Notes: generated by a model not told the origin, from the letters alone. Counted from the stretch's first letter, positions 48,230 through 51,814 are shown. The stretch is DNA of 60,905 nt from Candidatus Babelota bacterium (GCA_049325595.1 JBMOLF010000017.1:1-60905); one strand, 5' to 3'. Translations and numbers: made by a program.

Positions 48230-49168
48230 TTATATTTGTATATCTACAATGATTGGAAGATGATCGCTTGCTGCACTAAAATAAAAATAACATCCAGCAA
48301 GCGATATATCTTTTAATCTTGTTTTAATAAAATCAATGCGCTGTCCATATAAACTGGTAAACAAATGATCTTGTGAAAATCTACTAAAACAATCATTAAA
48401 CCCATTGTTCAGTAAAAATTGAGATGCGGTAGACTTATTGGTGTCATTAAAATCACCGGCAATAATCACGTTTTTTTGCGCATCTTTTTGTTTAATCATA
48501 TGCATTAATTCTTGTACTTGTAAAAGCCGAATTTCTTGGTCAGGTTGTATATTTTTTGGATTGTATCCACTTACTTGCGTATAGATTGCAAGATGCGTAG
48601 CATAAATAACTAAATTGTTTTTTTTGAATGGCGATAAATCAAATTCGGCTTTAATAAAACTTCTTGTTCGCCCCATTTTTATACGATTATTGCTTGAAAA
48701 CTCATGTGACGAAACCTGTTTAAAAGGAAGCTTTGACAATACCATATTTCCAAAATTTATTTTGCTATCTATACCAGCAAATGAGTTAAAAATAAAACCT
48801 ATTTTTTTTAGCCTTTGCAGAATCGGATGATTATTTTCTGCTTCTTGCAAAATTAAAATGTCAGGATTAGTTTTTTGTAGTAGTTTAACTATCTGATCTT
48901 CAGTAGAAATTCTTTGGGCATTGCTAAAACGATGTACGTTATAGCTCATTACACGAATGCTTTTTTTAGATGGTGCATGTAACGGTATTTGTCCATTTAA
49001 ATAAGATAGTTGATTTACCAAGATTTGGTAATGTTGTGAAAAATTGGTTGGATCTTTTTTTAGGCCTATTATTTCTCGTATTAATTGAGGTGAAAAAGAT
49101 AAATTAGTTTGTATTGAATTGATCGTAGAATTAAAAATAATAGGTAACAAAATTAGTATCTTTTTCAT
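48230..49168 (-). CDS. Secreted endonuclease/exonuclease/phosphatase (EEP) family protein
   Basis: VMSYNV, PDILILQE, YATHL, IIAGDFN, RIDFI, ASDHLPI. Confidence 0.92.
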   Translation of the reverse strand: MKKILILLPIIFNSTINSIQTNLSFSPQLIREIIGLKKDPTNFSQHYQILVNQLSYLNGQIPLHAPSKKSIRVMSYNVHRFSNAQRISTEDQIVKLLQKTNPDILILQEAENNHPILQRLKKIGFIFNSFAGIDSKINFGNMVLSKLPFKQVSSHEFSSNNRIKMGRTRSFIKAEFDLSPFKKNNLVIYATHLAIYTQVSGYNPKNIQPDQEIRLLQVQELMHMIKQKDAQKNVIIAGDFNDTNKSTASQFLLNNGFNDCFSRFSQDHLFTSLYGQRIDFIKTRLKDISLAGCYFYFSAASDHLPIIVDIQI

Positions 49169-50442
49169 AACATTCCTGCTTGAGCTGTGGGCGAGTAAGT
49201 AATAGTATTACCCGCTGTTTGTTTCCACTCATTGTAAATTTGTTGTGCTATTGATTTTATTTTTTGAAGGTAAATGCTTTGGTTTTGCTTAGGGCTGGTA
49301 CTATAACGAAAAATTTTCATACCGGTAGCAGGATCTCGTGTTAAATTACCGTGTAAATAAATACGTGCTTCAATAAGATCAATATAATCTTGTATTTTGC
49401 TAGGATGTTTTTTATAAGCCTCAAGCACTGGCGATATGGCGATATATCGTTTTTTAAATTCATCATAACCTTTTGTTATGTTATCAATTATGCTTGTCCA
49501 TAATACGCCTTTAGCTGCGCTTAAATAAGCATATTGATCGACAATTGCATGCGGTAAAAATATTTGCAGCAAATCGCCAGTGGGGCCGGCAAGTAAATCA
49601 TCAAGTGAATAAAGTTGCTTAATGTAATTTTCTTTTTTTTCATCATCCGTGATAAATGGCGAAATCACAAAGTTAACCAACGTACCAAATGCCGGTGGTT
49701 TACCAGCGCGTGAAGTAAGAAAATAAAAGAATGTGTTAGAAGCTGGACGAGACATACGTGCAAAAAAAGAACAATTTACCGATAATAAATATGGTTGCAC
49801 ATCTGGCAGGTTATTATTAAATTGTGAGCCGTAGCGTTGAATTTTTTGATCAAGCCATTGTTGTAAGGAGGGTAATTCAAAAGCTTGTGGATTATATGAG
49901 CGTAAAAAAATAAAATCATCGGGTAATGTTTTTCCACTTACTAATTGATATAACTGGCGATCTAGGTCTTGAACAATGCGAATTAAAGTTGGATGTGCAT
50001 GATAGAAAACAAAATAATCTTGTGCTAATTCTTGTTCTTTTTTAAGGCAGGCATCAAGTAAAGATGCATACCGTTCTTTACTATTTTGAAAACCCTTAAA
50101 CTCATTATATTTAGTGGTTCCTCTGTAAGGAGTTTGATCGGCATTGCCAAACCAAACATTTACTTGTTGTCTTAACGCAGGAATAGAAAGATACGAGCTC
50201 GTTTGAGTTGGCAACGGCGTAATACGTAAAGTAGGTTTTCCAATAGCAACACGAGCTTGCACTTCTTTGGCAGGAATGTGGGTTGCACCATATACCTCTA
50301 ATGGATTTTTTTGAATTGCTTCGACTTGTTTATTATGCTTTTTAAAATCTTGTAATATAGAGTTTAAACTGCCATTTGCATACAGATAGTTTTTTGAAAA
50401 ACATAGCAAAAATAATAAGATATTTACTCTATTCTTATTCAT
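49165..50442 (-). CDS. Secreted hypothetical protein, possible ADP-ribosyltransferase-like fold
   Basis: AGAGGA RBS before MNKNRV; signal peptide; motif order FVFYHA / LLSVN / LLQIFLP / IEARI. The ORF is solid; the fold is tentative. Confidence 0.6.
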   Translation of the reverse strand: MNKNRVNILLFLLCFSKNYLYANGSLNSILQDFKKHNKQVEAIQKNPLEVYGATHIPAKEVQARVAIGKPTLRITPLPTQTSSYLSIPALRQQVNVWFGNADQTPYRGTTKYNEFKGFQNSKERYASLLDACLKKEQELAQDYFVFYHAHPTLIRIVQDLDRQLYQLVSGKTLPDDFIFLRSYNPQAFELPSLQQWLDQKIQRYGSQFNNNLPDVQPYLLSVNCSFFARMSRPASNTFFYFLTSRAGKPPAFGTLVNFVISPFITDDEKKENYIKQLYSLDDLLAGPTGDLLQIFLPHAIVDQYAYLSAAKGVLWTSIIDNITKGYDEFKKRYIAISPVLEAYKKHPSKIQDYIDLIEARIYLHGNLTRDPATGMKIFRYSTSPKQNQSIYLQKIKSIAQQIYNEWKQTAGNTITYSPTAQAGML

Positions 50443-50455
50443 GAAATTTTTCCTC

Positions 50456-51814
50456 TTAGCGCGAAGGTAATGTTTCATATTTTTTAATGAGTGCGTCAAA
50501 TGCAGGATTAATACCGCCATCGCGACTTGGTTTAAGTTTTTCTGAGGTCCAGCTTACGTGTGCTGCTGCATTACGATTATTGAGAATGCCTTTTAATTCT
50601 TTTATCAGTGCTAATTTTTGATTATCTGGATAAGTGCTAATATATCCTTCAACAAAATTAGTTGTGGCCATTTTATAAAATTCATTCTGATTAAGACCTT
50701 TTAACCAGTCGCTAAATAAACCACCTAGTTGTGGGAAGAAAAAAATTTGCACAATGTCTATGTAGGCATCACGGCGGTTTTGTAATGAACCTTCCATGGT
50801 TTCATTATCTATAAAGGTAAAATGCCCTCTTTTTTCGTCGTAGAACATATTAAGCCAGTGTAAATCAGCATGTGCTAATGTTTTGCCAAGTATTTGGTTG
50901 GGGCTTGGTTCCATAAAACGTTTTTGGAAGTTGGCTAGTTCTTTTCCAAGAATTTGAAATGCTCTAGCAAGGCGTTGTTTATTTTGTTCTGAAGGATTTT
51001 GTTTATAATCTTCAATATAATCTATAAATTGTTTGCCAGGAGCTAATGGCATTTTTGAAATATAATTTTGTGTATTTTGATAGGGATAGACAAAATATGC
51101 TATTGGTATTGAAAGGCTTGGAAATCCATCTATAACATTGGGTGAAATTAAAGGGGCAATACCCGGATAATTTTTTAAACGTTCAAGTGCTTTTGCCTCT
51201 CTCATTCCTTTAGCTATTCCTTTTACAATAAATTGCTGAGCAGGGCCTTGAGAATTGCAGGTAGAAGTAACTAAAAATAATTGTGATGTTTGAAAGCCGC
51301 TTGCACCGCCGCCCTTGTATAAATTTTTTGCTTTTAAACAGTTAATATTAGAAAATTCAACAAATGGTAACTTTTCTTCTTTATATGCTTGTACTAAGAA
51401 TTCAAGCAAAGAGTTTTCGGTAAATTTACCATTAACTAACTTGCTTTGATTAAAATTAACACGATCAATTACGATAATATTGTTAAATAATCGATTTACA
51501 AATTGATCGTCGGATAATCCGGCCATGTTTTCTTTTTGTTTTATCGAATTGATTAGTTCTTTGGTGCATTGTCCTTCTTTAATGCAATGATCAAGAATGT
51601 AACTGCCGCTTTTATTTTGCCCTTCAGGGCTGCTCTTATATTTAACAATGCAACATTTACAGCTATTTTCAGCGCTATTTCCCCATTGATCAACAGCGCA
51701 ACTTGATTGAGGATTTATTTGTCTAACAATGCCATTGATATTAACGAGCTCATCAGGATTTGCGCCTAATTGATGAGTAACGGCAAAAATAAGAATGTAC
51801 TTTGATAATTTCAT
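50456..51814 (-). CDS. Secreted protein-kinase-like (APH/choline-kinase-type) phosphotransferase with Cys-rich N-terminal domain
   Basis: KGGGASG, FIVKG, REAKAL, HADLHWLN, FIDNE; six Cys in the N-terminal ~85 aa; AGGAG RBS. Confidence 0.8.
   Translation of the reverse strand: MKLSKYILIFAVTHQLGANPDELVNINGIVRQINPQSSCAVDQWGNSAENSCKCCIVKYKSSPEGQNKSGSYILDHCIKEGQCTKELINSIKQKENMAGLSDDQFVNRLFNNIIVIDRVNFNQSKLVNGKFTENSLLEFLVQAYKEEKLPFVEFSNINCLKAKNLYKGGGASGFQTSQLFLVTSTCNSQGPAQQFIVKGIAKGMREAKALERLKNYPGIAPLISPNVIDGFPSLSIPIAYFVYPYQNTQNYISKMPLAPGKQFIDYIEDYKQNPSEQNKQRLARAFQILGKELANFQKRFMEPSPNQILGKTLAHADLHWLNMFYDEKRGHFTFIDNETMEGSLQNRRDAYIDIVQIFFFPQLGGLFSDWLKGLNQNEFYKMATTNFVEGYISTYPDNQKLALIKELKGILNNRNAAAHVSWTSEKLKPSRDGGINPAFDALIKKYETLPSR

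Follow-up and report, generated by a model that had tools for sequence, protein, structure and literature searches.

Three genes for a kinase-like protein, a protein of an undescribed family and an EEP phosphoesterase form a candidate host-directed module in a Babelota genome

The SidE proteins of Legionella unite mono-ADP-ribosyltransferase (mART) and phosphodiesterase domains that together bring about phosphoribosyl-ubiquitination, and a regulator with a kinase fold, SidJ, is encoded in their neighbourhood. Dependentiae are widespread obligate parasites of protists. The DNA described here, a stretch of 60,905 nucleotides from Candidatus Babelota bacterium (GCA_049325595.1 JBMOLF010000017.1:1-60905) that is referred to as the window in the following, has a G+C content of about 33% and belongs to a genome of 1.29 Mb in 24 contigs that is 95% complete; homologues of its proteins carry the source labels Candidatus Babeliales or Dependentiae. 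It harbors three co-oriented genes, g1, g2 and g3, for a kinase-like protein, a protein of an undescribed family and a phosphoesterase of the endonuclease/exonuclease/phosphatase (EEP) type, all three of which are predicted to be exported. The arrangement may be analogous to that of SidE and SidJ, with a transferase-like domain and a phosphodiesterase, a kinase-fold gene next to them and a protist as the host. It differs from the Legionella system in that the phosphodiesterase is of the EEP fold, that g1 has a canonical active site of the aminoglycoside phosphotransferase (APH) type, that the nature of g2 as an ADP-ribosyltransferase (ART) is unproven and that export appears to depend on signal peptides and not on a type IV system, VirB4 not having been found in the window's genome.

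The g2 family also resembles the ankyrin effectors of Dependentiae and giant viruses, as its members are often fused to ankyrin repeats and bear signal peptides. According to the accessible part of the description of Chromulinavorax destructans, signal peptides occur on 44% of the coding sequences and on 78% of the ankyrin proteins of this organism, Sec is proposed as the export route and the function of the ankyrin proteins is treated as unknown; neither the g2 domain nor a link with EEP is described in that part (PMC6561590). The literature, covered incompletely by a few searches, likewise yielded no description of the g2 family, of the g2-EEP architecture or of a g2-EEP-kinase module, in line with a preliminary description of this locus, prepared from the DNA alone, in which no described system had been recognized. 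New are the g2 domain family and the way in which its domains are combined, whereas multi-enzyme effectors as such are already known as exports of intracellular bacteria.

We regard it as reasonably probable that g1, g2 and g3 form a translationally coupled operon of a protist parasite of the Dependentiae (Babeliales-type) and encode three enzymes that, exported by Sec, serve together as a single host-directed module, g2 and the EEP protein acting sequentially and g1 phosphorylating or regulating. The core of this module would consist of g2 and g3 as one functional unit acting on the same phosphate-containing substrate, which would be bound or chemically prepared by g2 in a first step and of which a phosphoester bond would be cleaved by the EEP domain in a second. 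The g1 protein, a putative disulfide-stabilized phosphotransferase of the APH/choline-kinase fold, would supply or regulate a phosphorylation step in the same pathway. Export would proceed via Sec and then probably via a type II-like secretin pathway, and the enzymes would act beyond the bacterial cytoplasm, the host cell being the most likely place. The preliminary description had already proposed an operon of three exported enzymes with a kinase-like g1 and an intact EEP protein g3, which is supported by our findings, but had read it as a writer/writer/eraser set of the effector-metaeffector type. The latter appears less likely, since g2 and EEP are repeatedly fused in operon order, and for the same reason sequential action on one substrate is favored over antagonism.

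The three genes and the spacer between the first two are arranged as follows:
50456-51814, minus strand: g1, predicted exported kinase-like protein of 452 aa, based on the open reading frame (ORF) call, a 31-member family and an AlphaFold model
50443-50455, minus strand: spacer between g1 and g2, 13 nt, containing a GAGGA ribosome-binding site
49165-50442, minus strand: g2, predicted exported protein of 425 aa that opens with MNKNRV and belongs to an undescribed family
48230-49168, minus strand: g3, predicted exported EEP phosphoesterase of 312 aa, the start of which overlaps the g2 stop (ATGA)

The start codon of g1 is preceded by AGGAG at a distance of 8 nt. In the ORF list g2 extends from 49165 to 50520 and begins at an upstream ATG within g1. 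The start at base 50442, from which the protein opens with MNKNRV, is judged to be the better one, because GAGGA precedes it by 8 nt and because a g2 homologue with 96% identity (P0001) opens with the same residues. With this start the junction between the g1 stop and the g2 ATG reads TAA-GAGGAAAAATTTC-ATG with 13 nt in between, and g2 and g3 share 4 nt (49165-49168, ATGA), so that the earlier account of three co-oriented genes, separated by 13 nt and then overlapping, is borne out. Judged by this layout, g1-g2-g3 is predicted to be a translationally coupled operon.

The main new finding concerns the linkage of these genes in other genomes. Eighty genomes of the taxonomic family were searched with g2, g1 and g3, and the loci found were retrieved and analyzed by hmmsearch. 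The whole trio recurs with the same order, spacing and overlap in the sole other genome of the genus, G065 (L028: 4478-5425, 5422-6720 and 6739-8106). Furthermore, g2 and EEP domains are joined in a single ORF in eleven proteins from three genera, of which G026 contributes six, G056 four and G013 one. The layout in ten of these proteins is a signal peptide, ankyrin repeats, g2 and EEP, the latter two in the same succession as in the operon; the fused protein from G013 has the reverse order with EEP before g2. As adjacent genes, g2 and EEP are present in a second G013 pair and in one pair in G014. Altogether, 15 of the 23 places with a g3-like EEP are fused or adjacent to g2, in six genomes from five genera, while the remaining eight stand alone; fusion or adjacency thereby extends to four genera beyond the window's own. 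Genes of the g1 family abut g2 at seven of 21 kinase places, namely in G067, G069, G071 and G072, all of one genus, and in G065 and the window's own genome. Homologues of the three genes are, in short, linked elsewhere, in the case of kinase and g2 in one genus beyond that of the window, so that the lack of linkage which the preliminary description had named as a refuting outcome did not come about.

A quick phylogeny built from 26 g2 domains places the window copy, together with the orthologue from G065, in the clade of domains that are fused to EEP (SH-aLRT 81), and the G013 domains in a clade of their own. The association of g2 with EEP is therefore either old or has arisen more than once. 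A complex prediction for the g2 core and the EEP domain of g3, run without controls, gave a score of 0.00 and no verdict. Once, g2 is found in one ORF with a DUF294 nucleotidyltransferase (L026:9773-12649, 958 aa). The surrounding region in G014 (L026, G014:C2:483000-496000), from 2382 to 12649, encodes a partial g2, an EEP protein, three tandem DUF294 (PF03445) paralogues and this fusion.

The assignment of g3 is clear. Its catalytic domain is located at:
48233-48973, minus strand: EEP catalytic domain of g3, aa 66-312

It matches Pfam PF03372 over profile positions 1-225 with an E-value of 1.6e-17 and 64.4 bits (cut-off 24.5). In an alignment of 28 sequences that includes the fused domains, no substitution occurs at N77, E109, H192, D239, N241, D279, D302 or H303, and these residues supply the entire catalytic set looked for (Asn, Glu, His, the Asp-x-Asn pair, Asp and a final Asp-His). 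The protein predicted from g3 is a complete, metal-dependent EEP phosphodiesterase, in keeping with the full set of EEP motifs read from it at the outset. In comparisons with the PDB, the g3 profile matched an uncharacterized EEP protein (4ruw, 4.8e-18), sphingomyelinase C/beta-hemolysin (~1e-15), ExoIII-type nucleases (~1e-13), TDP2 (~1e-10) and nocturnin (~1e-7), whereas the single sequence gave nothing at E <= 0.01; in the ESM Atlas only generic EEP clusters were retrieved. With PF03372 and the full catalytic set, g3 resembles the EEP superfamily in general (sphingomyelinase C/beta-hemolysin, ExoIII/APE nucleases, TDP2), and with sphingomyelinase C it shares its predicted export. It differs from the known subfamilies in being about equally far from several of them and in its coupling or fusion to a g2 domain.

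The g1 protein is composed of two parts:
51461-51757, minus strand: N-terminal cysteine-rich domain of g1, approximately aa 20-118, with Cys 39, 52, 54, 55, 77 and 83
50474-51457, minus strand: kinase domain of g1, aa 120-447, with K198, E206, H315-x-D317-x4-N322 and D336 in IDNE

The kinase-like motifs noted earlier are present and invariant in all 31 family members: FIVKG (K198), E206, HADLHWLN (H315, D317, N322) and FIDNE (D336). They provide every role tested, i.e. the ATP-anchoring Lys with the helix-C Glu, the catalytic loop HxDxxxxN and the metal-binding Asp. The six-Cys domain in front of the kinase was likewise recovered: at least 23 of the 31 members share each of these cysteines, while as many as eight are gapped at these columns and lack that domain. 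Within the kinase, 30 of 31 members have two further cysteines in common. This conservation fits folding outside the cytoplasm. In Pfam no kinase model was matched at its cut-off, the nearest being ABC1 (18.7 bits, cut-off 22.9, E 0.001) and Choline_kinase (17.1 bits, cut-off 29, E 0.0035), and g1 is for this reason taken as a member of the kinase fold class and not of a named family; a comparison of its profile (A2) with the PDB by sequence returned RIO2 alone (E 0.2). The AlphaFold model is confident (pLDDT 90.8). With Foldseek it matches kinases at a probability of 1.0, and in an exhaustive structural search small-molecule kinases of the APH/choline-kinase type lead over residues 120-441. 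According to the model, g1 thus has a bilobal kinase fold of the APH/choline-kinase branch of the protein-kinase-like superfamily. Closest to it are hygromycin APH(7'')-Ia (6iy9), amicoumacin kinase (6sum), N-acetylhexosamine kinase (4ocj) and choline kinases, from all of which g1 is set apart by its putative signal peptide, the six-Cys N-terminal domain and the two additional conserved cysteines. To our knowledge, none of the matched APH/choline-type kinases is an exported protein.

The g2 protein has no counterpart in Pfam, NCBIfam, PADLOC or PHROGs apart from ankyrin repeats in fused members, and comparison of two family profiles (A1 and A4) with the PDB by sequence gave chance-level rows only. 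An AlphaFold model based on 16 sequences has a mean pLDDT of 76 with a core (residues 120-411) at about 90, a disordered N-terminus of 117 residues and six strands. The conserved domain and the residues that characterize it, evaluated over 160 domain rows with only about 25-35% mutual identity, are:
49207-50091, minus strand: conserved alpha/beta core domain of g2, aa 118-412, model core pLDDT ~90, from conservation over the 160 rows and profile A4
E136: kept in 96%
Y147: kept in 96%
H148: kept in 93%, end of strand 1
D159: kept in 88%
R181: kept in 96%
N223: kept in 97%, end of strand 2 (S-x-N223)
Q293: kept in 97%
Y306: kept in 94%
Position 358: Gln in 88% (141/160), Glu in 9% (15/160), start of strand 5
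R360: kept in 99%
K376: kept in 85%
R379: kept in 81%
Y391: kept in 95%

P297 is also near-invariant. The conserved set, rich in His, Arg, Lys, Tyr, Asn and Gln, has the appearance of a site for catalysis or ligand binding in which many side chains would suit a phosphate.

This is a large family. When 1.84 billion representatives of clusters at 50% identity were searched with a profile, 1989 matched with an E-value of 0.001 or below, and 456 did so with E <= 1e-30. Matches are present in 46 of the 80 genomes of the taxonomic family and, in a sample of 251 genomes that covers the phylum, in 113 (E <= 1e-5), with up to 21 per genome and tandem arrays being common. The majority of members have 350-450 aa and stand alone, bearing a signal peptide but no domain of a partner, and among 34 long representatives examined ankyrin repeats occur in 18, EEP in one, tetratricopeptide repeats (TPR) in one and nothing recognizable in 14. 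Around 18 stand-alone loci, 31 of 54 neighboring ORFs are further g2 copies; the others are housekeeping and ankyrin genes, one NUDIX and one GT47, with no further recurrent partner. The 21 matches in G026 (loci L023, L030 and others), many of them in ankyrin ORFs of 500-1370 aa and including six tandem genes for ankyrin-g2-EEP proteins, amount to a strong lineage-specific expansion. One representative (P0068) comprises 7623 aa and has three g2-like stretches. In the genome of the window a second paralogue of 405 aa and 29% identity is encoded (G000:C15:131984-133180; L002:1138-2355); it adjoins a convergent dnaK-like gene and has no kinase or EEP gene nearby.

The sole confident matches to the g2 fold are uncharacterized giant-virus proteins, one from Mimivirus LCMiAC02 (E 2.7e-12) and one from Hokovirus (E 4.1e-8), deposited in BFVD as A0A481Z173 and A0A1V0SG32. 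By sequence, scans of IMG/VR for such relatives remained negative, with 0 of 81 pattern matches confirmed by profile A1 and 0 of 69 by profile A5. Both viral genomes are presumably derived from metagenomes, so that a binning error is possible, and the presence of this fold in giant viruses could reflect gene sharing among parasites of protists or a binning artefact.

Which chemistry g2 performs is the point at which other explanations have to be weighed. The preliminary description had found in g2 strands in the order expected for an ART core, and one explanation holds that g2 is a highly divergent enzyme of this fold that uses host NAD+, after which EEP would cut the ADP-ribose phosphodiester in a SidE-like manner and the kinase would modulate the reaction. 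One part of the earlier proposal stands: FVFYHA, LLSVN, LLQIFLP and IEARI, all conserved, coincide in the model with beta strands (143-150, 219-223, 290-297 and 358-362) in the expected order, with conserved polar residues at strand ends (Y147-H148, S-x-N223 and Q/E358-x-R360). A fusion of g2 with a phosphodiesterase would also fit a two-step reaction. Foldseek retrieved SidE (5zq6, E 0.6), DarT (7omv) and an ART-PolyVal-like phage protein (E 0.13) among its weak rows, scores in a range that the tools call uninformative; the recurrence of ART-like entries is suggestive, no more. A link to ART by sequence profiles, on the other hand, did not emerge. None of 16 and, in a larger set, none of 104 g2 members matched an ART Pfam model, for the 104 even at E <= 1, and among the PDB chains matched by profiles A1 and A4 at E <= 10 there was not a single ART. 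Foldseek with the g2 model gave nothing in the PDB at E <= 0.001, although the core is modeled with such confidence that a canonical ART fold should have surfaced. If the ART triad (H-Y-E or R-S-E) is compared with g2 by inferred equivalences, His would correspond to H148, and the position of the Glu would be predominantly occupied by Gln and followed by an invariant Arg; this predominance of Gln at strand 5 argues against canonical ART chemistry. Searches of the genomes add little: DarT (PF14487) was not found in the genome of the window, and the absence of PARP (PF00644) from 151 Dependentiae genomes is uninformative as the controls were also silent. All in all, an ART fold of g2 is doubtful, and the complete ART-based scheme unlikely.

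A language-model search of the ESM Atlas had DUF4765 as the best match of g2, with a score of 0.76 that is often reached by shuffled proteins and an Atlas model of pLDDT 0.34. This identity was rejected, the score being at noise level and PF15962 being without a match in the genome at E <= 10, a search in which the control genomes gave no match either. The accessible part of a report on CNFY describes its domain D4 as ART-like with Arg, Glu and His replacing the canonical triad and without detectable binding of NAD+ (PMC7883292). A likeness of g2 to DUF4765/CNFY D4, a domain for which no ART activity was found, is a lead from the language model alone, and no structural CNF match appeared among the lists.

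Alternatively, g2 may not be an enzyme at all and may instead act in targeting, as a scaffold or in regulation, bringing EEP, nucleotidyltransferase and kinase to one host component. Its joining to unrelated catalytic domains, EEP in 11 ORFs and DUF294 in one, its position next to kinases and the failure to find a known catalytic fold for it would agree with such a role. Conservation of about 14 polar or aromatic residues at 85-99% over 160 domains is however what one would sooner expect where catalysis or binding of a ligand takes place, and most members stand alone, with a signal peptide and no domain to be delivered. We consider a purely non-enzymatic g2 rather improbable.

Another possibility is that the module serves nutrition and not signalling, the exported enzymes degrading or reworking host phospholipids or nucleic acids for uptake by a parasite of minimal metabolism. 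Here g3 would resemble a sphingomyelinase/phospholipase C or a nuclease, g1 would be a kinase for head groups or other small molecules and g2 would bind or process the substrate. In accordance with this, the g3 profile matches secreted sphingomyelinase C/beta-hemolysin and ExoIII-type nucleases, and choline and ethanolamine kinases are among the closest folds of g1. ATP may reach the periplasm or the surroundings of the bacterium inside the host, in which case export of a kinase would not by itself imply an effector that modifies proteins. A related species is reported to secrete many hydrolases and to be without lipid synthesis (PMC6561590). Yet the sphingomyelinase matches span just the N-terminal two thirds of the g3 profile, the long ankyrin arrays on g2 and g2-EEP proteins suggest recognition of specific host proteins and not of bulk substrates, and fast-diverging multicopy tandem arrays are more typical of host-interaction families. 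Scavenging as the purpose of the operon is accordingly judged to be quite improbable. That the three genes are mere chance neighbors without common function in a region rich in genes for secreted proteins, where 15 of 49 window ORFs encode signal peptides by a crude rule and the two small ORFs beside the operon have signal-like N-termini, is hardly credible in view of the translational coupling, the conserved trio in G065, the g2-EEP fusions in three other genera and the kinase-g2 adjacency in another genus.

Export of the three proteins is well supported by their N-termini and those of their relatives. Signal peptides were scored by a crude hydrophobicity rule (mean of the best 9-mer, cut-off 2.3) and otherwise judged by eye. 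The claim that each gene encodes one holds for g3, which passes the rule, and by eye for g2, where the N-terminus read from MNKNRV shows a positive n-region together with VNILLFLLCF as a hydrophobic stretch; by the rule g2 was scored from the upstream ATG only, where it fails. It does not fully hold for g1, which is borderline and fails with a best 9-mer mean of 1.82, although its orthologues have clear signal peptides. By eye, all 11 fused ORFs and 30 of 31 N-termini inspected are signal-peptide-like. The same rule is passed by the 15 of 49 window ORFs mentioned above, which have at least 150 aa, and as signal peptides are common here, three in a row are only mildly unusual. Two secretins and ATPases of the GspE/PilB type, i.e. 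of type II secretion or type IV pilus systems, are encoded in the window's genome. A named strain that carries an orthologue of g1 with 71% identity (P0020) infects Vermamoeba vermiformis and is surrounded there by altered mitochondria (PMC8812299).

Several observations weigh against a host-directed module of sequentially acting enzymes. Adjacency of kinase and g2 represents two independent events at most, and in the second genus (G067, G069, G071 and G072) the two genes are convergent and not co-oriented. A g3-like EEP is present in only 11 and a g1-like kinase in 22 of the 80 family genomes, and most g2 genes must therefore work without either. The window g2 joins the EEP-fused clade weakly, and the tree carries a long-branch warning. 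No chemistry can be assigned to g2, which may be non-catalytic. Several EEP subfamilies match the g3 profile with similar strength and without a clear best, and the substrate of the module may be a protein, a lipid head group, a nucleotide or a nucleic acid. Finally, signal peptides are so common in the phylum that they say little about a special destination; crossing of the outer membrane is presumed, and the idea of delivery into the host is drawn from the fusion to ankyrin repeats, from the lifestyle and from the relatives in giant viruses.

The surroundings of the operon provide some additional features. Upstream of g1 a promoter-like site is present, a consensus match without evidence of function:
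51847-51876, minus strand: promoter-like site, TTGAAA, 18 nt, GATACT with TG

A scan for terminators on the minus strand between 47000 and 53200 found none. The operon is flanked by small ORFs at 47099-47635 (minus strand) and 47735-48217 (plus strand), both with signal-peptide-like N-termini and without a match in Pfam or NCBIfam; the latter is convergent and ends 12 nt from the g3 stop. In G065, an ORF of 156 aa (L028:3992-4462) occupies a position matching the small ORF beside the operon, the correspondence being one of position only. Two genes upstream of the operon, window 53099-53941 has a positional counterpart in G065 (L028:9406-10239) with a match to the restriction endonuclease domain Mrr_cat and a weak match to ATP-cone. 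At a distance from the operon, two adjacent plus-strand ORFs of about 370 aa (10880-11992 and 12007-13125) have very similar signal-peptide N-termini and are probably tandem paralogues.

A more far-reaching version of the module would have g2 as a new catalytic fold, or as an ART derivative no longer recognizable, that together with EEP installs a phosphodiester-derived modification of the phosphoribosyl or phospho-head-group type on host proteins, with the kinase as activator or regulator; such a system would be SidE/SidJ-like with unrelated folds, spread in Babeliales and shared with giant viruses. This version is speculative and, in our estimation, very unlikely to be correct in its entirety.

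Of the exported proteins of Dependentiae, reported to be nearly half of all, almost none are understood. For the g2 family two functional anchors are gained by the present analysis, its repeated fusion to EEP and its repeated neighborhood with an exported APH-fold kinase. An anonymous family is turned into a testable enzyme module, and experiments are feasible, since a carrier of a kinase orthologue can be grown in Vermamoeba. If g2 turns out to represent a transferase of a new fold, or else a cryptic ART, a new route of host modification would be added, and its relatives in giant viruses, if real, would give one more example of genes shared by intracellular bacteria with these viruses.

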